The notes: generated by a model not told the origin, from the sequence alone. 32,000 nt of DNA from Candidatus Saccharimonadota bacterium (GCA_963677105.1 OY781871.1:90001-122000); one strand, 5' to 3'; positions 2,137 to 28,020 are shown, numbered from the stretch's first letter. Numbers and translations: made by a program.

Positions 2137-2157
2137 TTTGCAGTTTGTAGTTTTATT
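2137..2157 (+). repeat. short heptamer array (3 units), member of the TTTGTAS family
   Basis: TTTGCAG TTTGTAG TTTTATT. The last unit contains the TAA stop (2153-2155, minus strand) of the CsaB-like gene, in the same register as the 21499-21540 copy. Confidence 0.55.
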
Positions 2158-3025
2158 GCTCCTGTCTCTTCAACCAATTCACAACTTTCTCCGCATACGG
2201 TTTTCCCAATGTTTTCACATCTGGACAACCACATGCTTTTGCGAGAATGAGAAAGTGTAAACGTTGCCCAATAGCTTGTTTGGCTGAAGAAAAAATCTCA
2301 ATCGCCTCTCGAATTGTTTCTGGGAAAATAATTTTTCCATCAAAATTCTCTGGACTCCATTTCGCGTCATTTGGCTCCATCGATAAATAAATATCAGCCT
2401 TCGGCCATTTCCCTTCAAATTTCGCACGCGCATTTACTAAAATAAATTTTTTATTTGTACTTTGTACTTTGTACTTTGTGCTTTTCCCCGCTGAAACCTC
2501 TCTCAGAAAATTTTCCGCAGCATCTCCCACCACTTCTGCTTCTCCACCAAAAGAACGAATTACTTCTGCGCTAGATTCATCTCGAACAGAAATAGAACTC
2601 GCTGCAATAATCACTCTATTAAGCCAAAATTTTTGCCAATCATTTTTGGGAACATCAATTCCTTGCGCTTCCATTTCAATACGAGCTTCTGGAAATAGTT
2701 TTCGTAAACCCCAAACGGTACTTCCCCAAATCCACCACGCACGATCTTTTATTGCTAATAATCCTCCTCCAGGAAAAACAATTCGATCAATTTTTCCTTG
2801 CAACTCACGCAACGTTCCTTCTGGATGAGAAATAAATCGAATCCAACTGCGAAATCCTGTTGGAAATGGTAAAACAGTCTGAAATTTCTGTTCTTGAAAT
2901 CGTTGACTAAACGCTCCATCCGCAGTCACAACAATCGCTTTTGGATACCGTTCAAGTGCTGAAGCAAGAATCATTTCATCTCCTACATTTCGTGCGCCGA
3001 AATTTCCAACTAAAAGTGTTTTCAT
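2153..3025 (-). CDS. polysaccharide pyruvyl transferase family protein (CsaB-like)
   Basis: 290-aa ORF. The N-terminus MKTLLVGNFGARNVGDEMILASALE matches the Y/FGxxNxGDE start of pyruvyl transferases. The C-terminal RLHFLILAKACGCP resembles the conserved RLH motif region. It contains an in-frame heptamer array at 2454-2481. Confidence 0.7.
   Translation of the reverse strand: MKTLLVGNFGARNVGDEMILASALERYPKAIVVTADGAFSQRFQEQKFQTVLPFPTGFRSWIRFISHPEGTLRELQGKIDRIVFPGGGLLAIKDRAWWIWGSTVWGLRKLFPEARIEMEAQGIDVPKNDWQKFWLNRVIIAASSISVRDESSAEVIRSFGGEAEVVGDAAENFLREVSAGKSTKYKVQSTNKKFILVNARAKFEGKWPKADIYLSMEPNDAKWSPENFDGKIIFPETIREAIEIFSSAKQAIGQRLHFLILAKACGCPDVKTLGKPYAEKVVNWLKRQEQ
2454..2481 (+). repeat. heptamer array (4 units) inside a CDS
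   Basis: TTTGTAC x3 plus TTTGTGC in perfect tandem. Translated on the minus strand as ..STKYKVQSTNKK.. within the CsaB-like ORF. Confidence 0.85.
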
Positions 3026-3117
3026 TCTTCTTTTTTTTCAGAAGAAATGGCAACATACACACCAAATCCCATCAACAGAAGAAATCCAAGAAGTATTAAT
3101 ATTGCAAAGAAAGACAT
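3022..3117 (-). CDS. 31-aa hydrophobic micro-protein, translationally coupled to the CsaB-like gene
   Basis: Not in the ORF track because it is under 60 aa. ATG 3117 to TGA 3022-3024 encodes MSFFAILILLGFLLLMGFGVYVAISSEKKEE, one TM helix plus a charged tail. Its TGA overlaps the ATG of the downstream gene (ATGA). Confidence 0.4.
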   Translation of the reverse strand: MSFFAILILLGFLLLMGFGVYVAISSEKKEE

Positions 3118-3256
3118 ATTAGAATTATTACTGCAAACGAAATGTAACACAGACCCTCAGTGCTAACAAACAAGAAATATTTTGTTTTGTTTTTTGACAG
3201 ACCTCTTTCCTTTATCTATTTTCGAATGGTATAAATTTTCTTTACTTCAAATAAAT

Positions 3257-3832
3257 ATGAAAACCTTGCGCAACACAGAAACAGAAAAAAATTTATTAAA
3301 ATCTTTCGCTGGCGAATCTCAAGCACGAATGAGATACGATTATTTTGCAAAACAAGCAAAAAAAGAAGGGCTCGAACAAATTTCTGCTATTTTTGCTGAA
3401 ACGGCACTCAATGAAAAAGAACACGCAAAAAGATTTTTCAAATTTTTAGAAGGAGGACACACAAAAATAACAGCAACGTATCCAGCTGGAAAAATTGGAA
3501 CAACGCTCGAAAACCTAAAAGCGTCCGCTGACGGAGAAAATGAAGAATGGAGTGATCTATATCCGGAATTCGCAAAAACAGCACGAGAAGAAGGTTTTAT
3601 AGACATTGCAACTACTTTCACAATGATTGCGATTGCAGAAAAAGCGCATGAAGCAAGATTCCGAAAGTTATATGCAAATCTTGAAGCTGGAAATGTTTTT
3701 AAACGAGAAGGAAAAATTGTTTGGAAATGTTTAAATTGCGGATATTTACACGAAGGAGATTCTGCACCAGAAAAATGTCCTGCTTGTTTGCATCCACAAT
3801 CTTATTTTCAAATCAAAGAAAATAATTATTAA
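3257..3832 (+). CDS. rbr: rubrerythrin
   Basis: Ferritin-like di-iron helices (ESQARMRY.., EKEHAKRF.., GENEEW.., AEKAHEARF) plus a C-terminal rubredoxin-type CxxC..CPxC (WKCLNCGY...KCPACLHP). The start is moved to ATG 3257 (MKTLRNTETEKNL); the track's upstream extension is hydrophobic noise. Confidence 0.9.
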   Translation: MKTLRNTETEKNLLKSFAGESQARMRYDYFAKQAKKEGLEQISAIFAETALNEKEHAKRFFKFLEGGHTKITATYPAGKIGTTLENLKASADGENEEWSDLYPEFAKTAREEGFIDIATTFTMIAIAEKAHEARFRKLYANLEAGNVFKREGKIVWKCLNCGYLHEGDSAPEKCPACLHPQSYFQIKENNY

Positions 3833-3838
3833 AAAGCT

Positions 3839-4435
3839 ATGAACAATCTGCAAGTGCTCCCTCGTTTGAAGAATCAATACTTCACCCTTCGACATGGAGA
3901 AAGTCAGGCGAATATACAAAAAATTGTTTTAAGCGATCCACGAAACGGAGTTCCTAATTTTGGGCTCACTGAAAAAGGAAAACAACAAGTCAGAGATTCT
4001 GTTTCTACCAATAAATATTTGGATAAAAATATAATAATTTATTCTTCAGACTTTCTCAGAGCTAAAGAAACTGCCGAAATTGCAAAAAAAATATTACACA
4101 CTGACAAGATTCATTTTACTGAACTTTTACGAGAACGATTTTTTGGTGATTTTGAAAAAACAAGTAATGAAAATTATGAACTCGTTTGGAAACATGATAA
4201 AGAAGACCCGAATCATGAATTTAAAAATGTAGAAAGTGTTGCGAGTGTTTTAGCGAGAACAACTGGACTCATTCTTGATCTCGAAAAAAAGTTTCACAAT
4301 AAGAAAATATTACTCGTTTCTCATGGAGATTCGTTACAAATATTACAAACAGGATTTTTAAAAACGTGTTCCTCCACGCACCGTGAAATTCAACATTTAC
4401 ATACTGCAGAAATAAGAGAATTATTACTTGAATAA
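3839..4435 (+). CDS. histidine phosphatase family protein (phosphoglycerate-mutase-like)
   Basis: RHGES catalytic motif near the N-terminus (FTLRHGESQAN) and a second His motif (LVSHGDSLQIL). Confidence 0.75.
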   Translation: MNNLQVLPRLKNQYFTLRHGESQANIQKIVLSDPRNGVPNFGLTEKGKQQVRDSVSTNKYLDKNIIIYSSDFLRAKETAEIAKKILHTDKIHFTELLRERFFGDFEKTSNENYELVWKHDKEDPNHEFKNVESVASVLARTTGLILDLEKKFHNKKILLVSHGDSLQILQTGFLKTCSSTHREIQHLHTAEIRELLLE

Positions 4436-4443
4436 TTTTTTAC

Positions 4444-4482
4444 ATAAAAAAATGCTCCCAACCGAAGTCGGGAGCTTTATTT
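4444..4482. terminator. bidirectional rho-independent terminator (stronger on the minus strand)
   Basis: The minus strand reads GCUCCCGAC-UUCG-GUUGGGAGC followed by AUUUUUUU: a 9-bp stem with one G.U and a UUCG tetraloop. The plus strand forms the same stem with one A.C mismatch, followed by TTTATTT. It lies between convergent genes. Confidence 0.75.
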
Positions 4483-4514
4483 CAGGACACCTCATTAGTG
4501 TGAGCTGAGGGGCT

Positions 4515-4709
4515 CTAACAAGGCATCTCTTGCATAATACACATTCGATTTTTTTGGTATCCATGGCCACATTTTCCACAACCATCACAGCTTAAAAAAC
4601 AATCTTTCTTTTTACCTTGTGGATTAAGATTTCCTTTGCTTAACCGATTCTTGTGTCCTTGTTCTTTCGCTAATGCTAAAATTTCTTCGTTTGTCATTTC
4701 TCGTGACAT
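4515..4709 (-). CDS. small cysteine-rich protein (64 aa, six Cys in the C-terminal 28 residues)
   Basis: ATG is preceded by the best SD in the window (AAAAAAAAGGAAGGAAAAA-ATG) and the ORF is followed by a strong terminator. Sequence: MSREMTNEEILALAKEQGHKNRLSKGNLNPQGKKKD-CFLSCDGCGKCGHGYQKNRMCIMQEMPC, Cys pattern CX3CX2CX2C..CX6C. No family recognised. Confidence 0.5.
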   Translation of the reverse strand: MSREMTNEEILALAKEQGHKNRLSKGNLNPQGKKKDCFLSCDGCGKCGHGYQKNRMCIMQEMPC

Positions 4710-4975
4710 TTTTTCCTTCCTTTTTTTTGTTCTAGTCTATGTCTTGTTACACAGACCGAAACCAAGAAACAACACTATTTCTTAATCTCGATCTGCGCTT
4801 TTAAAACCCTTCTCAGGGCCTGAAATTTCTCACTTCTTATGTTTTACGAACTCGCTTTCGTTCCAGACGGAAGTCAGCCAATATCAGTAACTTTTTTATA
4901 AAAAATGAGGAGAATAAAGCCCTGTGATCCGAAATGTCAAAGAAATACCTTCTGTCTAATAATTTTCTGTCGAGA
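4710..4975 (-). other. long structured 5' leader (or independent small RNA) upstream of the Cys-rich ORF
   Basis: No credible ORF on the minus strand. Minus-strand hairpins:
- 4805-4820: GGCCCU-GAGA-AGGGUU, GNRA-capped
- 4764-4783: AAGAAA..UUUCUU
- 4735-4756: GUCUGUG..CAUAGAC
- 4846-4861: ACGAA..UUCGU
I could not match any riboswitch or ncRNA class. Confidence 0.35.
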
Positions 4976-4977
4976 AA

Positions 4978-5005
4978 CTTATACTGATTTTATAAATTTT
5001 GTCAA
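4978..5005 (-). promoter_or_regulatory. candidate sigma70-type promoter for the leader and Cys-rich ORF
   Basis: The minus strand reads TTGACA (5005-5000), 16-nt spacer, TATAAG (4983-4978). It lies just downstream of the stop of the 81-aa ORF. Confidence 0.45.
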
Positions 5006-5021
5006 CAGTATAAAAAATATA

Positions 5022-5267
5022 TCATTTTTTATTATCTCCAATTATATTATCAACAATTACCATTGGATCCTGATGTTCTATTTCTCCTATTCCTTGAATG
5101 ATTTGTTCAGAAGTTGCATGAGGATTTTTGTTTAAAACCTCTCTCATCTCCTCAGCAAATCTCTCTACAATCGCAATAATTATTGGTGTATTATGCTGTT
5201 CTTTTTTGGGGAGAAGCATTTTTATAGCCTTCGATTGTGCCTCACTCTGTTCTAAAAATGTGTTCAT
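5022..5267 (-). CDS. hypothetical protein (81 aa)
   Basis: ORF 5022..5297 begins at TTG. I prefer ATG 5267 (MNTFLEQSEAQ..), which lies downstream of GAGAGGAG. Acidic, helical, no family recognised. Confidence 0.5.
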   Translation of the reverse strand: MNTFLEQSEAQSKAIKMLLPKKEQHNTPIIIAIVERFAEEMREVLNKNPHATSEQIIQGIGEIEHQDPMVIVDNIIGDNKK

Positions 5268-5310
5268 TTCAAATATTCTACTCCTCTCGAAAAACAAAAA
5301 GCAAGTCTTT

Positions 5311-6435
5311 CTATGACTTTATTAAAAATTCATTTAACTGCTCTCTAAAATGCGCTTCATCAAAAGACATTCCTCTTTTTACTATTTCCTTTTTATCTAT
5401 CGTTTTTTCTATTTTCACAAAATGATCAATCGCTTGTTGTAGCGATTCTCTTGATTGCTCAGCAAAAGAACTTCCCCACTTGCCGACAGATTCTGTCGCA
5501 CCACCTTTGTTGTAGTAAATGACTGGAGTTCCTGCTAACATTGCCTCAATCGGAGTAAGTCCAAAATCCTCTTCTGCTGGAAATAAAAATGCACGCGCAC
5601 CCGCATATAATTCTGCTAATTCTTCATCTGGAACGAATCCAAGAAAATCAATATTCTTTGTGTTTTTTGCGAGTTCTTTACAGCGTTCCCATTCTGGTCC
5701 ACGTCCTGCTAGTTTCAATTTCAATTTATTTTTCGCAAATGTTTCAACAAGTAAATCAAATTTTTTGTAGGGAATAAATCGTCCAACCGCAAGAAAATAA
5801 TCTCGTTTTTTACTTTCTTTTCCAGCTGTAACAAATTTTTGTGTTTCTACTCCAGGATATATTGTTGTCGATTTTTTTCCGTAAAATTGTTGAATACGTT
5901 TTCCCACAAAATCAGAATTTGAAATCCAATGGTCAACATTTTTTGCGGCGCGTTGATCTATTCTCGTAAGCCAATTTAATAACACTGGTAAAATAATTCG
6001 TACTGGTTTTATCCATACAGGAAGCGGAAATGTTTTTATATATTCATCGCGTGCATGATAGAGAAACCGAACTGGCGTATGACAATAGCAAACATGTATT
6101 TGTTCTTTTCTTGTTTTTTTTACACACTTAGAAAACCCCGAACTGCTCGAGGTAATAATCAAATCAAATTCAGAAAGATTCAGTTTTTTAAATGCGTTTG
6201 GAAAAAATGGCAATAAAAACTGATGTTTATTTCGAATAAAAGCTGGAAATTTTTGTAACCAAGTTGTCTTCACTGTTTTTGTATGAAGTTCTGGAAATTG
6301 CGACTTATTATAAACACTCGTGAAAATAATTGCCTCAGGAAACAGTTTCGCTAAAGAAAAAATAACACGCTCTGCCCCACCACGACTCGTAAGCCAATCA
6401 GCAACAATCGCTACTTTCTTTCCTTCTAATTTCAT
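5311..6435 (-). CDS. glycosyltransferase, GT4 / Glycos_transf_1 family
   Basis: N-terminus MKLEGKKVAIVADWLTSRGGAERV is typical of this family, and C-terminal FLFPAEEDFGLTPIEAMLAGTPVI is the GT-B donor-binding region. ATG 6435 is preferred over the track's GTG 6477. Confidence 0.85.
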   Translation of the reverse strand: MKLEGKKVAIVADWLTSRGGAERVIFSLAKLFPEAIIFTSVYNKSQFPELHTKTVKTTWLQKFPAFIRNKHQFLLPFFPNAFKKLNLSEFDLIITSSSSGFSKCVKKTRKEQIHVCYCHTPVRFLYHARDEYIKTFPLPVWIKPVRIILPVLLNWLTRIDQRAAKNVDHWISNSDFVGKRIQQFYGKKSTTIYPGVETQKFVTAGKESKKRDYFLAVGRFIPYKKFDLLVETFAKNKLKLKLAGRGPEWERCKELAKNTKNIDFLGFVPDEELAELYAGARAFLFPAEEDFGLTPIEAMLAGTPVIYYNKGGATESVGKWGSSFAEQSRESLQQAIDHFVKIEKTIDKKEIVKRGMSFDEAHFREQLNEFLIKS

Positions 6436-6481
6436 CTTCGGAATTCTGGCATTTTTTGGAAAAACTGGCAAACTCACAGGG

Positions 6482-7540
6482 ATGAAGAAACTATTGATAA
6501 GCTTATTTCTTGTCTTTCCCTCTCTAACATTTGCGCAATCAAATGTAAGTGAAAATGAATTTCACCGAGGAATTGTGGTCGAAGCACGCGATTCTGTGGC
6601 AGAAGAAGTTTTTGGCGAAAAAAATCTTGCACAAGAATTACGCGTAAAACTCGACGACGGACGAGTCGTTGCTATTCCTGCTGGACAATATCAAATCGTT
6701 GTTGAGTCTCAATTACTGAGTGTGGGAGATAAAGTAATTTTAGCAAGTTCTCACGGAAAAAATTTTCGAATTCTCGAACTTAATCGCACACGAAACCTCT
6801 GGATTATTATTGGAATATTCTTAGTTCTCGTTGTATTAATTGCTGGAAAACAGGGATTTACCGGAATTATTGGATTATTAATTTCTCTCATCGCTATTGC
6901 TGGAATTTTAATACCCCAAGTACTTGCTGGAAAAAATCCTCTCTTCGTAAGCCTCATTGTCTGTGCTGCAATTACTGGAATTTCTATTTGGGTTTCTCAT
7001 GGATGGAAAGCGCGCACACATCTTGCCGTTACTTCCACTTTTTTAACATTACTCATCGCCTTTGGGCTCGCTTGGATATCAATAAATATCACCAGTCTCC
7101 ATGGACTCGGAAGTGAAAATTCGTATTTTTTACAAGTAGCAATTCCTGGTGTAAATTTGTCAGGATTACTTCTTGGAGCAATTTTGCTCGGAACAGTTGG
7201 AATTTTAGACGATGTAACGACTACACAATGTGCAACCATTGATGAACTTTCTCAGGTGAATCAAGGACTTTCTTGGAAAAAATTATTTTCACATGGAATG
7301 TCAGTAGGACGTGAACATGTTGCCTCAATGATCAATACTTTAGCGCTTGCATACGTTGCTGCAGCACTTCCAATGTTTCTTCTTATTGCTCTCGACACAG
7401 AACGCCCTTGGTGGGTTGTATTTAATTCAGAATTTTTCGCAGAAGAAATTGTCCGAACGATGCTTGGATCTGGAGCACTTGTTCTTGCTGTACCAATTGC
7501 AACTCTTTTCTCAGCATTATTTTTTGCTCGTAAAAAATGA
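6482..7540 (+). CDS. polytopic membrane protein, YibE/F-like
   Basis: Start moved to ATG 6482 (MKKLLISLFLVFPSLTFAQS signal/anchor). An N-terminal soluble segment is followed by about 7 TM helices and a GILDDVTTTQ motif reminiscent of YibE/F. The family call is from memory. Confidence 0.5.
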   Translation: MKKLLISLFLVFPSLTFAQSNVSENEFHRGIVVEARDSVAEEVFGEKNLAQELRVKLDDGRVVAIPAGQYQIVVESQLLSVGDKVILASSHGKNFRILELNRTRNLWIIIGIFLVLVVLIAGKQGFTGIIGLLISLIAIAGILIPQVLAGKNPLFVSLIVCAAITGISIWVSHGWKARTHLAVTSTFLTLLIAFGLAWISINITSLHGLGSENSYFLQVAIPGVNLSGLLLGAILLGTVGILDDVTTTQCATIDELSQVNQGLSWKKLFSHGMSVGREHVASMINTLALAYVAAALPMFLLIALDTERPWWVVFNSEFFAEEIVRTMLGSGALVLAVPIATLFSALFFARKK

Positions 7541-7833
7541 ATATGAAAATTTCTCGTGTTCGAAAAGCTCCACAATTTCCTCACCAAAAAGGATTTAGTA
7601 TCACTGGTTTTTTTCAGCTGTTAATTGGAATTTTCATTTGGATAATAATGATCATTCTCTTTGCCATTGGTTCTTGGGCTATTTGGTTTGGAAAGTCATC
7701 ATCATATCTCATTGGAAAATCTCACAACATAGTTCCTTGGTGGTTTAGTTGGATGTGTGTTTTTCTTCTTTTTCCCTTCACTGCCTTAGTTATTTTGGTA
7801 GCTGAGTTTGCAAAAATCGTAAACACAAAATGA
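7537..7833 (+). CDS. small membrane protein (98 aa, about 3 TM)
   Basis: ATGA overlaps at both ends (7537-7540 and 7830-7833) place it in an operon with the YibE/F-like gene and the ABC-F gene. Strongly hydrophobic. Confidence 0.55.
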   Translation: MNMKISRVRKAPQFPHQKGFSITGFFQLLIGIFIWIIMIILFAIGSWAIWFGKSSSYLIGKSHNIVPWWFSWMCVFLLFPFTALVILVAEFAKIVNTK

Positions 7834-9641: not shown

Positions 9642-9688
9642 ATAAAAATAATACATGTTATATATTTGAATTAAATCATCGTATTAAA

Positions 9689-10243
9689 ATGAATAATGCA
9701 ATCATCATCCATGGAACAGGAGGATATCCTGAAGAAAATTGGTTTCCTTGGTTAAAAGAGAAGTTAGAAAATCTTAATTTCACCGTTCAAGTACCACAAT
9801 TTCCTACTCCAGAAAATCAAGATCCAGAACATTGGTTTGAAGCATTCAAGGAATATGAAAAATATATTAACCAAAACACAATAATTGTTGCTCATAGTGG
9901 TGGTTGTGCTTTTTTACTACGATTATTGGAATCTCTTTCTACAAAAATAAAATTAGCTGCTTTCATTGCTCCACCAATTGGAGTAATGCCAATAAAGTAT
10001 ATTGAAGCGGATCGCCCTTTTCTTACAAAACCGTTTGATTGGGAGAAAATCCGGAACACTTCAGAATACTTTGAAGTATTTCACTCTGAAGATGATCCAT
10101 TTATTTGCATCGAAAATGGAGAAACCGTTGCTAGCAAATTAAAAGTTTCTTTAAACAGATTAACTCATGCTGGTCATTTTAATGAGGCTGCAGGATATTT
10201 AGAGTTTGATTTATTACTCGAGAAAATAAAACCGTTACTGTAA
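9689..10243 (+). CDS. alpha/beta serine hydrolase, YdeN/RBBP9-like
   Basis: Start at ATG 9689 (MNNAIIIHGTGGYPEENWFPW). Nucleophile elbow VAHSGG, then later SEDDPF and HAGHF, consistent with a Ser-Asp-His triad of the small Ser_hydrolase family. Confidence 0.7.
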   Translation: MNNAIIIHGTGGYPEENWFPWLKEKLENLNFTVQVPQFPTPENQDPEHWFEAFKEYEKYINQNTIIVAHSGGCAFLLRLLESLSTKIKLAAFIAPPIGVMPIKYIEADRPFLTKPFDWEKIRNTSEYFEVFHSEDDPFICIENGETVASKLKVSLNRLTHAGHFNEAAGYLEFDLLLEKIKPLL

Positions 10244-10726: not shown

Positions 10727-10755
10727 GTTTTTCTTGTTAGCTAAAATGTACTACA

Positions 10756-11034
10756 ATGAGCACAATGCGAAAAGAAAAAGTAAATAAGTTTGCACCAAAA
10801 ATAGAAGCAGAAATTGATCTTCATGGATTTCATGAACATGAAGCAATTGAAGCCATAAGCGAGTTTTTGATGAACGCAGAACAAAAACACATGAAACGAG
10901 TCCGCATTATTACCGGAAAAGGAAGTGGAATTTTACAAAAATCTGTTCGTACTTGGTTGATAAACAATGAATATTTTTTCGAAACAGCCAAAATAACCGA
11001 AGGCGGTTCTGGCGCATTAATTGTAAAATTGTAA
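10756..11034 (+). CDS. Smr domain protein
   Basis: 92 aa containing DLHGFHEHEA...RIITGKGSG, the hallmark of Smr / MutS2 C-terminal nuclease domains. Confidence 0.8.
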   Translation: MSTMRKEKVNKFAPKIEAEIDLHGFHEHEAIEAISEFLMNAEQKHMKRVRIITGKGSGILQKSVRTWLINNEYFFETAKITEGGSGALIVKL

Positions 11035-11037
11035 GAA

Positions 11038-11802
11038 CTATTTGTAGTTTGTACTTTGTACTTTGTAGTTTGAGTAGTGGTTTCCTGCCGCAAGAAGTCC
11101 TTCAAAAGATCCCGTATCAAATCGCTCTCCATCAATAACACACGCACTCAATCGGCGAGATTCTGAAAGCATTTTTTGAAATGTTCCTGAAAGACGAATT
11201 TCTCCATCAGAATGAGCTTCTGTATCATGAAGTAAGTGTAAAACCTCCGGAGTTAATACATATTTTCCAATAACTGCGAGCGTTGAGAACGCTGCTTCTA
11301 CAGTTGGTTTTTCCTGAATAGTTTCAACTTCTTCTTGAGAATTCAAATGAACAATTCCATATTTTGAAACTTGTGCACGCGGAACACTTTGTAGCCCAAT
11401 AACTGACAATTGTGTTTTCTCAAAAGTATCAATTAATTGTTGTGCTGCATTTTTTCCTCCTTCGTTGTCAATTAATTCATCTCCAAATAAAACAAGAACT
11501 GGTTCATCTTCATCGAGTTTTGAAATTGCTTGTGCAATCGCATGTCCATCGCCTTTTGGTTCGTCTTGATATACAAAAGAAATCTGAGAATTTCCAGTAA
11601 AATGATGTCGAATTGATTCTTTTTCCACACTAATAACAAGAATTACGTTTTCAATTCCTGCATCAAGAGCTTCTTGTACAATGAGATCGATCACTGGACG
11701 ATCATACACGGGCAATAATTCTTTTGGTGTTGTACGAGTCAAAGGCATAAGCCTCGTTCCCCTTCCCGCAACAGGAATAATTGCTGTACGAATTTTTTTC
11801 AT
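11038..11802 (-). CDS. galU: UTP--glucose-1-phosphate uridylyltransferase-like nucleotidyltransferase
   Basis: N-terminal AIIPVAGRGTRLMPLTRTTPKELLPV is the GalU/NTP-transferase signature. The last 12 codons (..NYKVQSTNYK*) are encoded by the heptamer array at 11041-11075. Confidence 0.8.
   Translation of the reverse strand: MKKIRTAIIPVAGRGTRLMPLTRTTPKELLPVYDRPVIDLIVQEALDAGIENVILVISVEKESIRHHFTGNSQISFVYQDEPKGDGHAIAQAISKLDEDEPVLVLFGDELIDNEGGKNAAQQLIDTFEKTQLSVIGLQSVPRAQVSKYGIVHLNSQEEVETIQEKPTVEAAFSTLAVIGKYVLTPEVLHLLHDTEAHSDGEIRLSGTFQKMLSESRRLSACVIDGERFDTGSFEGLLAAGNHYSNYKVQSTNYK
11041..11075 (+). repeat. heptamer array (5 units)
   Basis: TTTGTAG TTTGTAC TTTGTAC TTTGTAG TTTGAGT. It lies directly after the Smr stop (11032-11034) and forms the 3' end of the galU-like ORF. 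Confidence 0.85.
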
Positions 11803-12297: not shown

Positions 12298-12325
12298 GAC
12301 TATCTATAATTTTGTTATTTAAAAG

Positions 12326-12353
12326 GAGCTTCGCAATGCGAAGCTCTTTTTTT
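12326..12353. terminator. bidirectional rho-independent terminator
   Basis: Perfect 9-bp stem GAGCTTCGC-AAT-GCGAAGCTC, flanked by AAAA on the left and TTTTTTT on the right. It lies between convergent genes (membrane protein and eno). Confidence 0.8.
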
Positions 12354-18402: not shown

Positions 18403-18429
18403 TTAGCAGTCGAATTATAAGAGTGCTAA
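18403..18429. promoter_or_regulatory. CIRCE operator (HrcA binding site)
   Basis: TTAGCAGTC-N9-GAGTGCTAA against the consensus TTAGCACTC-N9-GAGTGCTAA: one mismatch and exact 9-nt spacing. It lies 18 nt upstream of the dnaK ATG. Confidence 0.9.
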
Positions 18430-18441
18430 GAGTCCTGTCAA
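18414..18441 (-). promoter_or_regulatory. dnaK promoter overlapping CIRCE
   Basis: The minus strand reads TTGACA (18441-18436), 16-nt spacer, TATAAT (18419-18414). The -10 lies inside the CIRCE spacer. Confidence 0.7.
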
Positions 18442-18486: not shown

Positions 18487-18492
18487 CCGAGC

Positions 18493-21380: not shown

Positions 21381-21498
21381 AAAGGAGAGTTTCAAAAAAT
21401 ATCAAGTAATTATACCTCAAAAAGCACTTTTAATCAAGCTTCATCACAATCAAAACAGTAACCAAACACTCCAAATTACAAATTAGAAAACTTCAAAC

Positions 21499-21540
21499 TT
21501 TGATATTTGTTATTTGTACTTTGATATTTGAACTTTTAAA
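21499..21540 (+). repeat. heptamer array (6 units)
   Basis: TTTGATA TTTGTTA TTTGTAC TTTGATA TTTGAAC TTTTAAA. The last unit contains the TAA stop of yebC (21536-21538, minus strand). Confidence 0.8.
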
Positions 21541-22273
21541 GAAGGTTGTCGTCCACATCAAATCCACCAAATACTTCATCCACATCTTCTGCATCTTCTA
21601 CTGCTGCGATGAATTTTTCTATTTTTTCCAAATCTTCTGCTTCTGTGATTTTTACCGGATCTTTTGCATGATATTCTGGTGCAGATTTTGACACTTCTAT
21701 TCCAGCAGAAATAAGAGCATCACGCACTGAACCAAGATTTTCAAATTTCGTAATAATCTCGCTTTCTTCTTCATCGTAAGAAAAATCATCTCCTCCAGCT
21801 TCAATCGCTATTTCAAACAATTCGTCTTCTGTTTTTCCATCATTTTTTACGAGAATAACTCCTACATGATCAAACTGAAACATAACTGAACCTGAACTTC
21901 CCAGATTTCCTCCGTTTTTCCCAAACGCTGTTTTTACTGATGGATATGTACGATTCGTATTATCCGTCAAGGCCGTAACAACAAATGGAACTCCTGCTGG
22001 ACCGAATCCTTCATACACTTGCTCTGAATACACAACGCCATCTTTTCCATCTCCTGACAGTTTTTTCAAAATTCGATCAATATTGTCATTCGGAACATTT
22101 TCTGATTTTGCATTCGCAATCGCTACTTTCAAAGACGAATTCGTATCAGGATTCGGATCACTTCGTCCCACAACCGCAATTATTTTTGAATGTTTCGTCA
22201 AAATCTTCCCACGTCGTGCATCATTTGCTCCTTTTTTGTGTTTAATCGTGCTCCATTTATTGTGTCCAGACAT
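21536..22273 (-). CDS. yebC: YebC/PmpR family DNA-binding transcriptional regulator
   Basis: MSGHNKWSTIKHKKGANDARRGKI.. is the invariant YebC N-terminus. 245 aa. Confidence 0.9.
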   Translation of the reverse strand: MSGHNKWSTIKHKKGANDARRGKILTKHSKIIAVVGRSDPNPDTNSSLKVAIANAKSENVPNDNIDRILKKLSGDGKDGVVYSEQVYEGFGPAGVPFVVTALTDNTNRTYPSVKTAFGKNGGNLGSSGSVMFQFDHVGVILVKNDGKTEDELFEIAIEAGGDDFSYDEEESEIITKFENLGSVRDALISAGIEVSKSAPEYHAKDPVKITEAEDLEKIEKFIAAVEDAEDVDEVFGGFDVDDNLL

Positions 22274-22313
22274 GTTTAAAAAATAAAATTTTCCTGCGAA
22301 GTCTACTCAAAAT

Positions 22314-23009
22314 TTATTTTTGACGCAACTGCTCGACTTCTTTCTCAGTTAATTTCCTCCATTCACCTGATTGCAAATTCCCAATTTCAATTGATTTCAC
22401 TCGCGTACGAAATAAATCTATCACATTCAAATGACAGGCTTCACACATTTTACGAATTTGCCGATTTCTCCCCTCTTCAAGAATAATCTTAAATTTATTC
22501 GACTTCATTTGTTCCACTACACACGGTTTCACTTTTTTATCATTCAAACGAATCGATCCGTTTCCTAATTTTTCTATCTCAACTGAAAACAAGCTTTTAT
22601 CGACTGTAACAACATATTCTTTGCTGTGTTCATATCGTGGATGCGCTAGAAAATTACAGAGTTCTCCATCATTTGTAAGGAGCAAAAGTCCGTGTGAATC
22701 TTTATCTAATCGACCAACTGGAACCACTCGTTCTGGACCAAAATCAAAACTTTTTAATGTTTTTCCTCCATGAGAATTATCAAATGTAACTTCAACTCCA
22801 ATTGGTTTATTCCATGCGAGTACAATCTTTTCTGGATTTCGTACCGTTAATTTTTTTCCTGAAATCAAAATTGTTTCCGTTCCATCTACTTGATCTCCAA
22901 GCGTTGCAATTGTTCCGTTAATTAAAATTTTTCGTGCAACAATCATCGCTTCTGCTTCACGTCGAGAACAAACTCCTTGCTGAGAAAGAAATTTTTGAAG
23001 TCGTATCAT
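22314..23009 (-). CDS. pseudouridine synthase, RsuA/RluB/RluF family
   Basis: N-terminal S4 domain (RLQKFLSQQGVCSRREAE) and catalytic GRLDKDSHGLLLLTNDG. Confidence 0.85.
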   Translation of the reverse strand: MIRLQKFLSQQGVCSRREAEAMIVARKILINGTIATLGDQVDGTETILISGKKLTVRNPEKIVLAWNKPIGVEVTFDNSHGGKTLKSFDFGPERVVPVGRLDKDSHGLLLLTNDGELCNFLAHPRYEHSKEYVVTVDKSLFSVEIEKLGNGSIRLNDKKVKPCVVEQMKSNKFKIILEEGRNRQIRKMCEACHLNVIDLFRTRVKSIEIGNLQSGEWRKLTEKEVEQLRQK

Positions 23010-24253
23010 GCGCGACGACGAGAAGAATAAAGACCAAATATTCCAACTAAAAGAATGGCAATAAATATTCCTGCCATTCCTGCTGGACCAGATTGTGCCA
23101 ATTTCGTAGTGAACGAATACACAGAACTCTCTGAGCGATTTCCAGAAGCATCAACTGTAACGATTTTGTATTCGTAATTTTTTCCAACTTTTATGTCTAA
23201 TTCAATTGTGTTTATCTCTTTCCCAATAGAATATCCTGAATCCCATGATCCCAATCCTTCTTTTACATACAGAATTTGATCCACTACGTCATTTTCTAAA
23301 TCAATTGATTTATCCCAACTCAATTCAGCAATTGCATCTGATGCAATTCTATCCGTATTTACAGTCAGATTCATCGCCTCAATTGGTGGAATAATATCTG
23401 GTGCTACTGGTTTCATCTGCTCTGGTTCTTGTATTGGTTCAATCTTCTTTTCTGGAAGTACTTCTTTCTCTTCTGGTTTAGACGTAATTTCCGATTCTGG
23501 GAACACCATTCCCACACTCAAAATCATACATTGCTTTTCTTCTAATACTTTTTGTAATAAATTTTCTGTATCCTTTCCTTCAGCAATATCACTGTAATAT
23601 TGTCCCATTGATTCTAATTTTTCTAACGGATATCGACATTCCATCCATTCTTTTTGCAACATTGTTTCTTTATAGCGACATGTATCATCTACTATTCCTG
23701 AAATCGTACGCGTAAGAACTTCTTTTGTAAGAGGATGTTTAAACGTACATTCATATTCTTCACAATTTGTTAATTTCTCTGGAAACGCTTCACAATCTAC
23801 TTTTTTTGGTTCTTCAATTGGTGTAACAACTTCTGGCTCTTTTTCTTCTTCCTTGGGCGGAACAATCACTTCTTCATCTTTCGGTATAGTAAATTCAACT
23901 TCAACAGAATAATTCTCTGATTCATTTTCTTCACTGTCTAACGCTGTTACGGCGAAATAATACGTCGTTCCCGGTAAAAGATTTTCAATTACTGTTTCAA
24001 TGCCTCCAGAAACCATTATTTCATCATCATATGTTGCACCAACCTCTTGAACCGAAGTCGTTCCAAAATATACACGATATCCAATAATAATGTCTTCTGT
24101 ACTTTCTGCTTCTTCCCATGTTACTCGCACAGAATCTTCTCCAGCCAATTGAACTTGTACATTTTCAACCTGTGAAGGAAAGGAAAATGCGCTTACTACA
24201 CCAAAAAATACTAATCCAAATATGGAGAGAATCGAACGAAAATATTTTTTCAT
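23006..24253 (-). CDS. surface protein with two fibronectin type III-like domains and a C-terminal membrane anchor / possible variant sorting signal
   Basis: Signal peptide (ILSIFGLVFFGVVSAFS). FN3-like segments (VRVTWEEAE..GYRVYFG..PGTTYYFAVTALD and ELSWDKS..YEYKIVTVDASGN). A central 6-Cys domain. C-terminus LAQSG-PAGMAGIFIAILLVGIFGLY-SSRRRA. The stop overlaps the rsuA-like ATG (ATGA). Confidence 0.7.
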   Translation of the reverse strand: MKKYFRSILSIFGLVFFGVVSAFSFPSQVENVQVQLAGEDSVRVTWEEAESTEDIIIGYRVYFGTTSVQEVGATYDDEIMVSGGIETVIENLLPGTTYYFAVTALDSEENESENYSVEVEFTIPKDEEVIVPPKEEEKEPEVVTPIEEPKKVDCEAFPEKLTNCEEYECTFKHPLTKEVLTRTISGIVDDTCRYKETMLQKEWMECRYPLEKLESMGQYYSDIAEGKDTENLLQKVLEEKQCMILSVGMVFPESEITSKPEEKEVLPEKKIEPIQEPEQMKPVAPDIIPPIEAMNLTVNTDRIASDAIAELSWDKSIDLENDVVDQILYVKEGLGSWDSGYSIGKEINTIELDIKVGKNYEYKIVTVDASGNRSESSVYSFTTKLAQSGPAGMAGIFIAILLVGIFGLYSSRRRA

Positions 24254-24278
24254 ATGTATATTAAATCAATCGTTAAAT

Positions 24279-24309
24279 ATTATAGCATCTAGAGCGGGTT
24301 TCTTGTCAA
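24279..24309 (-). promoter_or_regulatory. candidate promoter for the FN3 gene
   Basis: The minus strand reads TTGACA (24309-24304), a long 19-nt spacer, and an extended -10 TGcTATAAT (24287-24279). Confidence 0.5.
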
Positions 24310-24349
24310 ATTTTATACGCATTACGCTCCTCATAAAAAATAGAAAATT

Positions 24350-24384
24350 TTTGTAGTTTGTACTTTGAAAATTGAACTTTTAAG
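24350..24384 (+). repeat. heptamer array (5 units)
   Basis: TTTGTAG TTTGTAC TTTGAAA ATTGAAC TTTTAAG. On the minus strand it lies 10 nt downstream of the stop of the SLH protein gene. Confidence 0.85.
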
Positions 24385-24394
24385 CAAAACGACT

Positions 24395-26782
24395 CTATCG
24401 ACTAAAAACTTGTGTCACATACCAATCTTCTCCGTCACGCGAAATACCAATTCCTATTTTTTCCCATTTACGAGCAGAAAGGTTTTTAAAATGAGATCCA
24501 GAACTTCGGAGTCCATCGAGTGCGATTTGCAAAGAACTGCCCATTCCTAAGTTTTCTCCAAACTCAACTCCTTCTAAATGTGCTGCTTTTAGACGAGATT
24601 TAAAAGTTTGTCCTGTCGGAGATGTATGAGAAAAGAAATTTTCTTGTGCCATACGATCTGCATAATTTTGTGCAAATTCATTCAATTCTGCACTAGCAAT
24701 TACCGGCGCTAAATTCAATTCATCTCGTACTCTGTTCACCCAAGCACGAACTCCCGGAACGGTATCTGAAGGCAATTTTATACTTTGTGGTGGGAAAACC
24801 GGTAAAACCCATTTTTCGGTACAATACAACTCTCGATTAAATAAAACTTCTCCATCATCCGCAACTACTTCAATCGCATATGCTCCCCATTCTTTTGGAT
24901 TTACAGAAAATGAAAAGTGATCACCATCACGCACATATGAAATCTTTTTCACGTGTCCTCGTGGAGTAGTTACAAATGCATAATCGTCGAGTGTCACATC
25001 TGGAGATAAAACTTTTCCTGATATCGTAAATTCGTTTAAATCACGACGCCATCGAGGGAAATCATGTACTGAAACTTTTTCTGTTTCAACATCTAAAAAT
25101 CCAGGGACAAGATCGAAATTTTTATATGATAATTTCGTCCATCCAGATGTTCGTTGTGGCAATGTTCCATCATTTGATTCTGCTGCATAAATATCTACCG
25201 CTAAATTTTCTTGAGACTGAAACTGTGAAAAAAATGTATATGGCAATTCTAATGTATCAATTCCTCCATAAAGAAACAGTGACTTATGTAATGATTGTTG
25301 TGCAAACGAAATTTTTAATAAATCTGTTGAATCCAATTTTGGCAAATCCCATATTACGGTTTGTCTTTCCGGAAGAATTCGTACATCAAATTCTGTTTCA
25401 AATTCTTTTTTACTCATCGACATCAATGGATGCCTGTTTAACTCAACAACTTCAATCGTTTCAACACGTGATCTTTTTTCATTATCCAATACCGCTCCAA
25501 TTAAAAATTTTCCTGCAGTATCAAATACCACTGGAAACGAAAAATTCTTTCCAGAAATTTCACCCGTAAAAAGATCCTGTTCTCCAATTTTTTCTCCATC
25601 ATTTGTAATTGGTTGCAGAAATACCGTCATTTTTTCGTACTTTCTTTCATGAGTTGATCCTGAAAAATTCAGAACTGTTCCTGCCACAATTTTCTGAGGC
25701 AACGGACGACGCATTGTAAATTTCTCAAAAAAACTCGTCGCAAGCATGGAAACTGTTTCTGTAAAAAGTGGTTTTATTTTTGTTGGTTGTTCTAATTGTC
25801 CGCGTAATTCTGCAATTTTTTCTGAAATAGAATCTGGCAAGGGAGGTTGTACTCTTTTGTCATCTGATAAATTAGGACGAATATATTCTGGCACAGCTGG
25901 TTGCTCATCACTTGGCGTAGAAAAAACTTCAAAAGCAACATTTGTCTTTTGTTGATACTTATCTGCTAACAATAAAAAGGCTTTTTGAGAAAGAACAAAT
26001 GCCAAAGAAGCGTCTTCGGGCAAACGATCATTAATTTTGACTACAATCGAATGATTCTCATTCCATATTCGAACTCGCGTTCCAAACGGAAGATTTTTAT
26101 GTGCTGCGGTCATAGAATTCGGATCAATAGAATCACCGTTCGCTGTTTTCTTTCCATTTAATTCTACTGAATAAGCTGTCACAAAACCTTCTCCAGCAAA
26201 CCGAAATACATTTTCAAACCCGGTTTCTGCTACTTTTCTTGCTCGATATAAAAGTTCTGCAACTTCTCCTCTATTTAAAACTGAATGAACTTCCGCATCT
26301 GTGTCTATAATCCCTAATTTATGTGCTAAATCGAAAAACGGAACTGTCCAATCTTCTTCTTCATTTTCAGATATCGGCGCATGAAAAATACGAAAAGTCA
26401 TAGCCAACATTTCCGCTCGTGTTACGGAACTTGCTGGATAAAATTTTCCATCAGGAAATCCTTCTACTACTTCTAAATTTACTACTGTTTCAATAAACGG
26501 AAAAAACCATTCATTTGATGGAACATCCGAAAAAGATGATTCTTTTGTTTCAATTACATCCACTCCTGAAACTCCTATCAACATTTTTATTGCTGCTGCA
26601 CGTGAAACTTCTTGTTCCGGGCGAAATTCTTTTTTTCTTCCAACACTATATCCTTCCACTAAACCATTCGAATACAACCATTCAATTGCTTGAAAATGAG
26701 GATGTATTTCTGGTACGTCTTCAAAACTTTGTGCAAAACACAACGCAGGAATCGCCACAATCAGACAAAGTATTTTTTTCAT
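24395..26782 (-). CDS. multidomain cell-surface protein: signal peptide, SLH repeats, RlpA-like DPBB domain, C-terminal CAP/SCP (YkwD-like) domain
   Basis: - SLH-like repeats: FEDVPEIHPHFQAIEWLYSNGLVEGY; FSDVPSNEWFFPFIETVVNLEVVEGFPDGKFYPASSVTRAEM
- RlpA-type DPBB: GKKTANGDSIDPNSMTAAHKNLPFGTRVRIWN..VVKINDR
- CAP domain: NYADRMAQENFFSHTSPTG..FGENLG..W.GIGI..YVTQVF. Confidence 0.8.
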   Translation of the reverse strand: MKKILCLIVAIPALCFAQSFEDVPEIHPHFQAIEWLYSNGLVEGYSVGRKKEFRPEQEVSRAAAIKMLIGVSGVDVIETKESSFSDVPSNEWFFPFIETVVNLEVVEGFPDGKFYPASSVTRAEMLAMTFRIFHAPISENEEEDWTVPFFDLAHKLGIIDTDAEVHSVLNRGEVAELLYRARKVAETGFENVFRFAGEGFVTAYSVELNGKKTANGDSIDPNSMTAAHKNLPFGTRVRIWNENHSIVVKINDRLPEDASLAFVLSQKAFLLLADKYQQKTNVAFEVFSTPSDEQPAVPEYIRPNLSDDKRVQPPLPDSISEKIAELRGQLEQPTKIKPLFTETVSMLATSFFEKFTMRRPLPQKIVAGTVLNFSGSTHERKYEKMTVFLQPITNDGEKIGEQDLFTGEISGKNFSFPVVFDTAGKFLIGAVLDNEKRSRVETIEVVELNRHPLMSMSKKEFETEFDVRILPERQTVIWDLPKLDSTDLLKISFAQQSLHKSLFLYGGIDTLELPYTFFSQFQSQENLAVDIYAAESNDGTLPQRTSGWTKLSYKNFDLVPGFLDVETEKVSVHDFPRWRRDLNEFTISGKVLSPDVTLDDYAFVTTPRGHVKKISYVRDGDHFSFSVNPKEWGAYAIEVVADDGEVLFNRELYCTEKWVLPVFPPQSIKLPSDTVPGVRAWVNRVRDELNLAPVIASAELNEFAQNYADRMAQENFFSHTSPTGQTFKSRLKAAHLEGVEFGENLGMGSSLQIALDGLRSSGSHFKNLSARKWEKIGIGISRDGEDWYVTQVFSR

Positions 26783-26880
26783 GTTTGTATATGCAAATGC
26801 TAGCAGGTAAAAAATAAAACTTCAATCTTCAAGCAACTAAAGATTTCTCGAATATGCTAAATTTTTTTCACAATTAATAC

Positions 26881-26916
26881 TTTGTAGTTTGTAATTTGAA
26901 AATTTGTACTTTTAAA
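26881..26916 (+). repeat. heptamer array (5 units)
   Basis: TTTGTAG TTTGTAA TTTGAAA ATTTGTAC TTTTAAA. It lies immediately downstream (minus sense) of the ndk stop and hairpin. Confidence 0.85.
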
Positions 26917-26934
26917 ATTGCGAATCGCAATTTT
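26914..26934 (-). terminator. hairpin overlapping the ndk stop codon
   Basis: AAAATTGCG-AAT-CGCAATTTT: 9-bp stem, 3-nt loop. On the minus strand it is followed by UAAAAG. AT-rich, so termination activity is uncertain. Confidence 0.45.
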
Positions 26935-27406
26935 ATTCCCATTCTTCTGGAGAAAACATTGGCTTCCATGCACGAGTTTTCCATTCAAATAATTCATTTT
27001 TCTTAAAAAAACGCATGATTTCATTTACTGCATTTTCTGAAGAATCCGAAGTGTGAATAAGATTCTTTTTTAGTTGTCCCGGAGAAGTGAATCCCATCAT
27101 GTCCCCTCGAAATGTTCCAATATCCGAAGCTTCAATTCCCGCTGTTTGACGTACTGCTTCAACAGCATTTGGTCCTTCTATTGCCACGACGACAACTGGA
27201 GTTGATTGCATGAATTCCTGTAACGCTGGAAAAAATGGTAAATCCGCAACATGTTTGTAGTGTTCGCATAAAATTTTCTCATCTAGTTGCATCATCTTTA
27301 ATCCAACTATTTTCAATCCTCGACGTTCAAACCGAGATAAACCTTCTCCAACAAGTCCTCGTTGCATTGCGTCGGGCTTAAAAATAACCAATGTTTTTTC
27401 AATCAT
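26933..27406 (-). CDS. ndk: nucleoside diphosphate kinase
   Basis: TLVIFKPDAMQRGLVGE.., with the active-site region NLIHTSDS (the NxxHGSDS equivalent). Confidence 0.92.
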   Translation of the reverse strand: MIEKTLVIFKPDAMQRGLVGEGLSRFERRGLKIVGLKMMQLDEKILCEHYKHVADLPFFPALQEFMQSTPVVVVAIEGPNAVEAVRQTAGIEASDIGTFRGDMMGFTSPGQLKKNLIHTSDSSENAVNEIMRFFKKNELFEWKTRAWKPMFSPEEWE

Positions 27407-27410
27407 ATTT

Positions 27411-27445
27411 TATAAAAAAGAGACGCGTCTATAATGACACGCCTC
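27411..27445 (-). terminator. rho-independent terminator of ssb
   Basis: The minus strand reads GAGGCGUGUC-AUUAUA-GACGCGUCUC (10 bp, two G.U) followed by UUUUUUAU. The plus-strand version has two mismatches, so it is minus-specific. Confidence 0.7.
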
Positions 27446-27472
27446 ATATTTTTTTCAAATGCTTTCTTGTAT

Positions 27473-27880
27473 TTAAAAGACAAGATCTTCTCCCGCTGGT
27501 TCTTCTGGAACTTCTTCCTCAATAACTGTTTCTTCTGCATCTGCATACTGACGAGCAGAAAGAACTATCATATCTTGTGCAACAATTTCTGTACGATAGT
27601 GTTTTATTCCTGATTCATCATCCCAACTTCGAGTTTGTAAACGTCCTTCAAAGAAAACTTTTGTTCCTTTTTTCAAAAGTTGCCCTGCCAACTCTGCCAA
27701 CTTTCCCCAACACACTATGTTGTGAAATTCAGCCTCTTCTCTTACTTCTCCTGAAGAATCACGAAACCGCCGATTTGTTGCTACTCCAATAGTAGTAACT
27801 GACTGTCCTGCCTTTGTTTGTCGGATATCAGGATCCCGAGTTACATTACCGATAACTTGCGCCTTGTTTAAAAAATTCAT
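27473..27880 (-). CDS. ssb: single-stranded DNA-binding protein
   Basis: Start at ATG 27880 (MNFLNKAQVIGNVTRDPD). OB-fold motifs (TFRVATNRRF-like VATNRRFRD, FHNIVCWGKLAE, GRLQTRSWDD) and an acidic tail ending EDLVF. Confidence 0.9.
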   Translation of the reverse strand: MNFLNKAQVIGNVTRDPDIRQTKAGQSVTTIGVATNRRFRDSSGEVREEAEFHNIVCWGKLAELAGQLLKKGTKVFFEGRLQTRSWDDESGIKHYRTEIVAQDMIVLSARQYADAEETVIEEEVPEEPAGEDLVF

Positions 27881-27978
27881 TTTTGATTGATTAGAAAATA
27901 TGAAAGGCATTTTTCATTCTATTATGGTTTTTTTCCGATGCAACCTTTTTTAGATAAATTTTATGTAAATCTTCATAA

Positions 27979-28020
27979 TTTGTAGTTTGGAGTTTGTAGT
28001 TTGTAATTTGAATATTGACA
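27979..28020 (+). repeat. heptamer array (6 units) ending in a -35 hexamer
   Basis: TTTGTAG TTTGGAG TTTGTAG TTTGTAA TTTGAAT ATTGACA. It lies in the divergent ssb / V-ATPase-B intergenic region. Confidence 0.85.

Follow-up and report, generated by a model that had tools for sequence, protein, structure and literature searches.

A 32,000-nt stretch of a Candidatus Saccharimonadota bacterium genome (GCA_963677105.1 OY781871.1:90001-122000; hereafter the window, 35.8% G+C) carries tandem arrays of one heptanucleotide family, (TTTGTAS)n, at dispersed loci and in a single orientation, and the question it raises is whether these arrays serve the genes beside them or are simple repeats that arose there recently. 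A sequence-only reading had taken them for an undescribed functional element, a view that our analysis only partly supports. Set beside related genomes, the arrays appear as young insertions or expansions and not as conserved terminators, operators, or replication signals. We put at about even odds (a probability of roughly 0.5) that they are heptanucleotide simple repeats like the short tandemly repeated repetitive (STRR) sequences, generated by slippage, copied between loci, and retained only at sites, and in the orientation, that compact gene order without Shine-Dalgarno sites tolerates.

Reading the window directly, we found all seven array sequences at the positions first proposed for them (Table 1). 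Tandem Repeats Finder (TRF) called period-7 arrays at 2454, 11041, 21499, 26881, and 27979, and the array at 24350, not among the TRF calls, was detected by a regular expression; together the two methods gave six loci with three to six head-to-tail 7-nt units. Locus 2137 had been counted as a full array and has merely two good units, and a two-unit "remnant" proposed at 12311-12324 could not be supported. ATTGACA, taken earlier for the last unit of array 27979, belongs to the atpB-like promoter as its ancestral -35 box and is kept in array-less relatives. Runs of at least three TTTGNNN units occurred six times on the + strand and not once on the - strand, in agreement with the uniform orientation claimed for the family, and Markov simulations of order 1, 3, and 5, which served as the composition check, gave 0.05 to 0.08 such runs per window on both strands, with a maximum of 2. 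The arrays are thus real and far from random, and with about 0.07 runs expected by chance the statistical case for this is strong. Their positions had also been described correctly: minus-strand stop codons lie within, or 0 to 16 nt from, arrays 2137, 11041, 21499, 24350, and 26881, array 2454 is inside a coding sequence (CDS), and array 27979 lies between divergent genes. Array 11041 had been rightly placed near a stop codon, but the description was incomplete, as the final 11 codons of the GalU-like gene are formed by this array. By location, four of the seven arrays are intergenic, two are at the 3′ ends of open reading frames (ORFs), and one is internal.

The arrays had been distinguished from hairpin elements, dispersed palindromes, and CRISPR, and this distinction held. 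The 7-nt units follow one another without spacers, so the repeats of at least 20 nt and the unique spacers of CRISPR are lacking. No terminal inverted repeats, target-site duplications, or flank homology were found around the arrays, which thus have neither the terminal inverted repeats or stable hairpin nor the full-length homologous copies of repetitive extragenic palindromes (REP) or miniature inverted-repeat transposable elements (MITE). RNA folds of the arrays with their flanks had z-scores of -1.7 to +0.2 relative to shuffles and contained no hairpin; the only real structure among them is a small hairpin at 26914-26934 after ndk, which precedes array 26881 and excludes it. TTTGTAS is unable to form a G-quadruplex. 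None of the arrays has the G+C-rich hairpin followed by a U tract of an intrinsic terminator, and a terminator scan gave terminator-like sites only at 27445-27420 and 26019-26002, none in the arrays. A hairpin or inverted-array terminator in the yebC insert was rejected (fold z = -0.1). Rfam at the gathering threshold returned no family for the arrays, the sole match in the window being a tRNA-His at 2005-2076. The arrays themselves can account for a marginal rise of lag-7 autocorrelation in spacers, and a general 7-nt micro-duplication of spacers was rejected.

The age of the arrays was judged from comparison loci fetched from relatives; these loci, like those from metagenomes and viral contigs, are given L-numbers. 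A scan of a genome collection with YebC placed the window among uncultured candidate phyla radiation (CPR) bacteria labelled Peribacteria, Gracilibacteria, or Altimarinota. The gene order atpB-like, ssb, ndk, SLH/CAP, FN3, rluB, yebC, 655-aa protein, ion channel, dnaK is conserved in L001, L015, L002, L003, L006, L008, and L010, and also in L200-L203, which were obtained through homologues of the SLH/CAP protein. Proteins of the closest syntenic relatives are 61-97% identical to those of the window, with a value of about 65% for the SLH/CAP protein in the nearest relatives. Genetic code 25 was considered and proved unneeded; table 11 fits all loci at a coding density of about 0.9.

None of the closest syntenic relatives (L001, L015, L200, and L201-203) carries a period-7 array. 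In L001, L015, L200, and L201, the stop codons of yebC and of the SLH/CAP gene abut the -35 box of the next promoter, a conserved one of the sigma-70 type, the junctions being TGA-TAGAGC-TTGATA...TATACT on the yebC side and TAA-AAT-TTGACA...TGCTACAAT on the SLH/CAP side. The window has both promoters too, displaced by the array-bearing inserts. Exactly three spacers of the window carry 80-92 nt extra, array included, and six other regional spacers are unchanged in length relative to the relatives. The yebC insert rewrote the last codons and the stop of the gene, from DSLC* in the relatives to NLL* in the window (21536-21560, - strand), and remnants of the old yebC end are found about 85 nt downstream, just before the promoter. 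Array 27979 replaces the spacer between the conserved divergent atpB-like and ssb promoters (IG1) with no net gain in length, and the relatives carry an ATACAAA/TTCAAA seed at its edge. Seeds are thus seen at two orthologous sites, ATACAAA in IG1 and A-K-Y codons in the pyruvyl-transferase gene. In the latter, the minus strand of array 2454 reads KYKVQSTNK, and this peptide aligns gap-free and without change of length to the L002 orthologue, which has A-K-Y there. Both reading-frame arrays (2454 and 11041) lie in the stop-free orientation and are read as KYKVQSTN.

Since the relatives have the same genes and promoters without arrays, the arrays are best read as gains in the window's own lineage. 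The suggested roles as a 3′-end signal, an RNA-binding platform, or iterons find no support in this comparison, given that in the four closest syntenic relatives these genes and promoters work without arrays, and readings that assume a conserved role are further at odds with other CPR genomes, where similar arrays occupy 5′ untranslated regions (UTRs) in the opposite sense. Homology of the insert sequence beyond the arrays was rejected as not significant: equally good scores came from 21-42 of 500 shuffles when two of the three inserts were compared and from 98-254 of 500 when the IG1 spacer was one of the pair. As a separate observation, the stop codons of the relatives abut the -35 boxes, and therefore the UP-element zone of these promoters falls inside the upstream coding sequence (relatives' spacers orthologous to 21396-21535 and 24254-24394).

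Table 1. Coordinates of the arrays, window-specific insertions, promoters, and neighboring genes in the 32,000-nt window (gene context from Pfam annotation and ORF calling).
Feature	Position	Strand	Remarks
Hairpin terminator, probably bidirectional	2095-2118		Array 2137 lies upstream of the hairpin
Weak array, TTTGCAG TTTGTAG and a degenerate third unit	2137-2157	+	Overlaps pyruvyl-transferase stop codon
Polysaccharide pyruvyl-transferase gene	2153-3025	-	Holds array 2454; stop overlapped by array 2137
Array, (TTTGTAC)x3 and TTTGTGC	2454-2481	+	Inside pyruvyl-transferase CDS
Smr-domain gene	10756-11034	+	Convergent with GalU-like gene; array 11041 begins 6 nt past its stop
GalU-like nucleotidyl transferase gene	11038-11802	-	Tail SNYKVQSTNYK array-encoded, beyond the Pfam domain
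Five-unit array	11041-11075	+	Equals last 11 codons of GalU-like gene
Promoter of 655-aa gene, TTGATT-N17-TATAAT	21409-21437	-	Conserved; in relatives begins 5 nt past yebC stop
Window-specific insertion, about 90 nt	21456-21545	-	yebC 3′ end; absent in L001, L015, L200, L201
Array	21499-21540	+	Overlaps yebC stop; inside the ~90-nt insertion
Promoter of FN3 gene, TTGACA-N19-(TGC)TATAAT	24279-24309	-	Conserved; abuts upstream stop in relatives
Window-specific insertion, 80 nt	24315-24394	-	Between SLH/CAP stop and next promoter
Array	24350-24384	+	10 nt past stop of SLH/DPBB/CAP protein gene; inside the 80-nt insertion
ndk-to-SLH/CAP spacer	26807-26932	-	92 nt longer than in L001/L201; hairpin, then array, then unrelated sequence
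Array	26881-26916	+	16 nt past ndk stop; in the ndk-to-SLH/CAP spacer
ssb promoter, TTGCAT-N16-TAGAAT	27916-27943	-	Conserved; 35 nt downstream of array 27979 (minus sense)
Five-unit array	27979-28013	+	Between divergent V/A-ATPase-B-like (atpB-like) and ssb genes
Ancestral promoter of V/A-ATPase-B-like gene, TTGACA-N16-TAAAAT	28015-28042	+	Conserved in array-less relatives

The position of the arrays relative to promoters was considered for both strands. The window arrays are in the reverse sense and precede conserved promoters, with 97-103 nt to the next start codon, and the distance from array to -35 box on the minus strand is 35-61 nt, too far for a UP element or operator, which was rejected. 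A promoter reading on the + strand was also rejected: array 27979 alone adjoins a strong promoter (11/12), an ancestral one, and the region has fewer sigma-70-like matches than shuffles have (15 vs 22). HutP-type (UAG-N4)3 sites, NtcA boxes, mutagenesis by diversity-generating retroelements, primase CTA sites, and uptake sequences, all considered as candidates, were dropped for want of a supporting feature.

Period 7 stands out not only in the window but also in its wider lineage. With TRF criteria of at least three copies and at least 75% matches, overlaps merged, the density of period-7 arrays per 100 kb was 15.6 in the window, 8.4 in 406 kb of CPR relatives, and 1.2 in 800 kb of non-CPR controls. 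In counts, the relatives had 32 arrays and the controls 10 (binomial p = 2e-8); AT-rich controls had 5 in 333 kb. The window has five period-7 TRF arrays and none of any other period from 2 to 11, and in the CPR relatives the 32 period-7 arrays compare with 2-9 for periods 5, 6, 8, and 9, which are not enriched; the non-CPR controls have no period-7 excess. Across unit sequences, period 7 thus prevails among the tandem periods of this CPR lineage. The units vary between and within CPR genomes (TGTTAAT, TACTTCT, AATTTTC, CTTTTAA, ATTCGTA, TTTGTCA, and others), and some genomes hold several unrelated units within 20 kb. In genomes with a coding share of about 88%, most of the arrays of the window and the CPR loci (33/43) are intergenic, and many CPR arrays are found 0-50 nt upstream of starts or take up the entire stop-to-start spacer. 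Their distribution is patchy: L004, L006, L008, L011, L013, L016, and L019 are array-rich, and L001, L015, L200-203, L002, L007, L009, L010, L012, and L014 have none or almost none. At dnaK, TTCGTAA/TTTGTAA arrays are found 9-17 nt upstream of the start in L006 (14507-14539) and L008 (8628-8651), the former between the CIRCE element and the start codon. L006 and L008 belong to different clades, and since the nearer relatives L007 and L003 have no dnaK-leader arrays, those of L006 and L008 look like independent gains.

These properties are those of repeats already known from other bacteria. In the survey of Mrazek, Guo and Shah (2007), as summarized in PMC4679880 and PMC4692102, heptanucleotides were the most abundant units of long simple sequence repeats (LSSRs) in most surveyed genomes, and a slippage bias set by the polymerase footprint was proposed as the cause. 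As far as these summaries describe the LSSRs, the window arrays share with them the tandem 7-nt units, the over-representation relative to composition and other periods, the mostly intergenic location, the sporadic phylogeny, and slippage as the proposed origin; they differ in that the window gives direct comparative evidence of a recent gain between stop and promoter. The window arrays thus have the defining features of the general heptanucleotide LSSR/STRR class, and the earlier statement that they match no described element does not stand, because intergenic heptanucleotide tandem repeats are a described class (PMC4679880, PMC4692102). Our literature search found no paper linking heptamer repeats to CPR/Patescibacteria.

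Another described family, TAACTGA (MacGregor 2015, PMC4679880), is known from marine Beggiatoaceae, cyanobacteria, and Bacteroidetes. Its sets comprise 2-6 copies, variant units included, sit for the most part just upstream of starts in contexts poor in ribosome-binding sites, lie within ORFs only in reverse orientation, and number 169 in the BOGUAY genome, where a binding factor was proposed. Common to both families are 2-6 copies per set, interspersed variant heptamers, one dominant unit per genome, mostly intergenic sites, ORF copies only in the stop-free orientation, a context poor in Shine-Dalgarno sites, and a forward unit whose stop codons cycle through all three frames. Apart from the unit itself, the difference is one of placement: TAACTGA sets mostly end 1 nt before a start codon in the forward sense, whereas the window arrays lie in the reverse sense beside stops, at least 97 nt from the next start. 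The start-proximal layout is seen for arrays of other units in L006, L008, L013, and L016. The STRR heptamers of Calothrix and Nostoc (Mazel 1990, as cited in PMC4692102) and the GGGAATC/GGGGAYT repeats of Xanthomonas and Nostoc (Rehm 2015, PMC4692102) are further examples, and in Xanthomonas the GGGAATC arrays lie between the same genes in relatives and vary in length and sequence. Like these, the window arrays are intergenic heptamer arrays with no established function; unlike TTTGTAS, the others are G-rich, G-quadruplex-capable, and often form far longer arrays.

A protein that reads a 7-bp register does exist. The ribbon-helix-helix (RHH) repressor omega of inc18 plasmids coats contiguous heptads with the unit WATCACW near promoters; these heptads overlap or abut the regulated promoters and are plasmid-borne together with the cognate gene. 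Omega is, to our knowledge, the only well-studied protein of this kind. The window arrays resemble its sites as contiguous 7-bp DNA repeats near promoters, but the window has no WATCACW, no heptads abutting a promoter, and no RHH gene by Pfam, and its arrays stand well upstream of the -35 boxes.

The course of events that we favor would start from a short seed such as TACAAA or AAGTAC, which would grow in 7-nt steps by replication slippage, the step perhaps reflecting the polymerase bias attributed to Mrazek et al. in the papers cited above. Array sequence may then have been copied across loci by template switching or gene conversion, and such copying would homogenize the family and account for the common order of variant units. 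Arrays 21499, 24350, and 26881 have the unit order TTTGTAC-TTTGAWA-WTTGAAC-TTTTAAR in unrelated flanks, and the three were therefore, we infer, copied from each other or from a common template. The sites occupied are stop-to-promoter gaps, the space between divergent promoters, C-terminal tails, and one variable protein loop. Selection would act on what is tolerated: in a cell without Shine-Dalgarno sites, read-through and leader RNA would have to be kept unstructured and reading frames open. Any present function would at most be that of a structure-free spacer or insulator between a gene end and the next promoter.

The composition of the arrays is consistent with such a filter. In co-directional spacers, the mRNA-sense strand of CPR arrays has more C than G in 13 cases and more G than C in 3, with 2 ties, and the totals over spacer arrays are 30 G and 80 C. 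Non-array spacer sequence is G/C balanced and coding sense strands are G-rich. When the three window arrays are omitted, the count for a G-poor sense strand is 10 to 3, so that the G-poor strand being the mRNA-sense strand is suggestive of a general rule across CPR loci. The lineage is essentially Shine-Dalgarno-less: among the closest relatives, an SD-like tetramer (GGAG, GAGG, or AGGA at -20 to -3; the check covered gene starts of L200/L201 and the window starts 24253, 26782, and 27880) precedes only 1 of 35 called genes, and leaders, rich in A and T, contain about 10% G. The uniform CAAA-sense orientation beside minus-strand genes would follow from a filter that favors RNA with little G, no structure, and no stop codons. 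The sequence-only reading had also raised a replication-polarised motif; the polarity is better explained by transcription (13 vs 3), though on 6-7 arrays in one window there may also be a link to the replication strand. In a 6-kb stretch of L006 with co-directional genes, copies of the family point both ways, which argues against strict polarity.

Several observations weigh against young, slippage-born repeats as the full account. Six loci within 32 kb carry one family, whereas plain slippage predicts random units at each locus. It also predicts mismatches spread evenly over the unit, and the TTTG core has 4 mismatches in 120 as against 28 in 90 for the 3-nt tail (30 units, p = 2e-8), a comparison partly biased by the way arrays are defined. 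The three inserts are similar in size, with the array being just 35-42 nt of each, and two arrays arose with no change of length, which simple expansion does not explain. Recurrence of a TTYGTAA family in L006, L008, and L078 hints at a sequence-specific factor. Finally, GC skew in the window follows gene direction, and replication strand and transcription are therefore inseparable there (6-7 arrays). The single unit family at six loci, the nearly invariant core, the common unit order, and the TTYGTAA recurrence can reflect either copying between loci or a sequence-specific factor, and the data cannot separate the two. We hypothesized accordingly that a genome-specific factor with a 7-nt register might use the arrays as binding platforms, on DNA (of the RHH omega type or a nucleoid protein) or on RNA (like the cold-shock or S1 oligonucleotide-binding folds, which have 6-7 nt footprints), with slippage supplying the arrays and selection keeping the TTTG phase. 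Such a factor would make sense of a nearly invariant TTTG beside variable positions 5-7, of one unit family at six loci, of the variant-unit order common to three arrays, of TTYGTAA in three CPR loci including the two independent dnaK-leader gains, and of a density of about one array per 5 kb in the window, the same order as the 169 TAACTGA sets of BOGUAY, for which a binding factor was proposed. It is nevertheless an unlikely, if serious, alternative: the arrays are missing from the closest relatives despite conserved promoters and gene ends, their distance of 35-61 nt from the -35 box is too great for an operator or UP element, some copies lie within CDSs, and Pfam found no RHH or cold-shock-domain gene within the window. 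Nor does the family keep one placement, being sense in the 5′ UTRs of L006/L008 but antisense and upstream of promoters in the window, and other CPR genomes hold several unrelated units within 20 kb.

The discrete size of the three insertions, set against four relatives, would fit the array being the end of a tiny non-autonomous mobile element of about 35-90 nt, inserted by an enzyme beside stops and occasionally in genes, in the manner of the small dispersed repeats of Nostoc or the palindromic elements of Rickettsia. The common ordered 35-nt core starting TTAAAAG and the presence in two CDSs with the frame intact point the same way. This we consider improbable, as terminal inverted repeats, target-site duplications, and a hairpin are lacking, similarity of the inserts beyond the arrays is not significant with or without IG1, two arrays came without a length change, and no transposase gene lies within the window. 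Least probable to us are hairpin-independent 3′-end signals that load Rho in a rut-like manner and insulate the next promoter. Five of the seven arrays overlap a minus-gene stop or begin 0-16 nt past it, and the sense RNA is G-poor (C>G) and unstructured, all of which such signals would share. Yet the relatives terminate or read through without any such element, Rho prefers YC dimers and the CUACAAA/GUACAAA units have none, and the yebC insert is rich in G past its array; moreover, the ndk and pyruvyl-transferase loci already carry hairpins, and similar arrays in relatives lie directly before intra-operon start codons, where termination would be harmful.

With slippage-born repeats retained as the preferred reading, the locus adds a host lineage to a minor puzzle of long standing and supplies a clean comparative case for it; the system itself is not of a new kind. 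Neither the 7-nt bias of bacterial heptanucleotide repeats nor their tendency to one dominant unit per genome has an explanation. The window extends the phenomenon to the CPR and serves as an unusually clean natural experiment, since its close relatives have these genes and promoters but no arrays, and the sense-strand G-depletion rule with the missing Shine-Dalgarno sites suggests what selection tolerates. In practice, the arrays can mislead annotation (C-terminal extensions) and motif discovery in metagenome-assembled genomes, and they are candidate strain-typing markers. A bolder proposal, which we find rather doubtful, is that a factor able to read or write in a 7-nt register, whether a DNA/RNA-binding protein or a copy-paste enzyme, is encoded by some CPR genomes, with the arrays as its cis-sites or footprints. 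If that were true, the 962-kb genome would hold about 150-200 TTTG-phased arrays at the window density, the arrays would be G-poor insulators or leaders in a Shine-Dalgarno-less organism, and the same principle would underlie the heptamer families of cyanobacteria, Beggiatoaceae, and Xanthomonas.

Outside this genome, the TTTGTAG unit has no special standing, as tandem heptamers of any sequence are common. A metagenome scan for TTTGTAGTTTGTANTTTG listed at least 120 contigs; among the matches listed were unrelated organisms of 24-68% GC with no homology to the window, and about one-third of the matches listed fall inside ORFs. In viral contigs, (TTTGTAG)3 was present in 19, compared with 51 and 14 for composition-matched heptamers. 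Arrays of composition-matched heptamers are equally common, and the metagenome scan is therefore uninformative on TTTGTAG specifically. In two metagenome contigs (L167 and L191), dense mixed TTTGGGG, TTTGAGG, TTTGTAG, and TTTGAAG units, with a constant TTTG and a variable tail, fill much of the sequence. (TAACTGA)3 was found in 107 viral contigs (loci L288-L367), several-fold above control heptamers of unrelated composition (14-51), and enrichment of this heptamer may extend to phage or prophage DNA.

Some features of the neighborhood are recorded here in their own right. The Smr and GalU-like genes converge with only 3 nt between their stop codons. Terminators with a hairpin and a T run, flanked by A and T runs, are found at 12325-12353 and 2095-2118, one between convergent genes and the other after the tRNA-His, and both are probably bidirectional; with such classical hairpins present, the genome does use intrinsic terminators. 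A CIRCE/HrcA operator, TTAGCACTC-N9-GACTGCTAA, at 18403-18441 (- strand) overlaps the dnaK promoter; in L008, no such operator could be seen over 130 nt upstream of dnaK, and the element has diverged in L003 and is kept in L006, L007, L010, L015, L016, L200, and L201. The V/A-type ATPase B-subunit-like gene (28076-29458, + strand) is an orphan with no A subunit nearby, is followed by ribH and ribB, and is the most conserved gene of the region, being 96-97% identical to its counterparts in L001 and L015.

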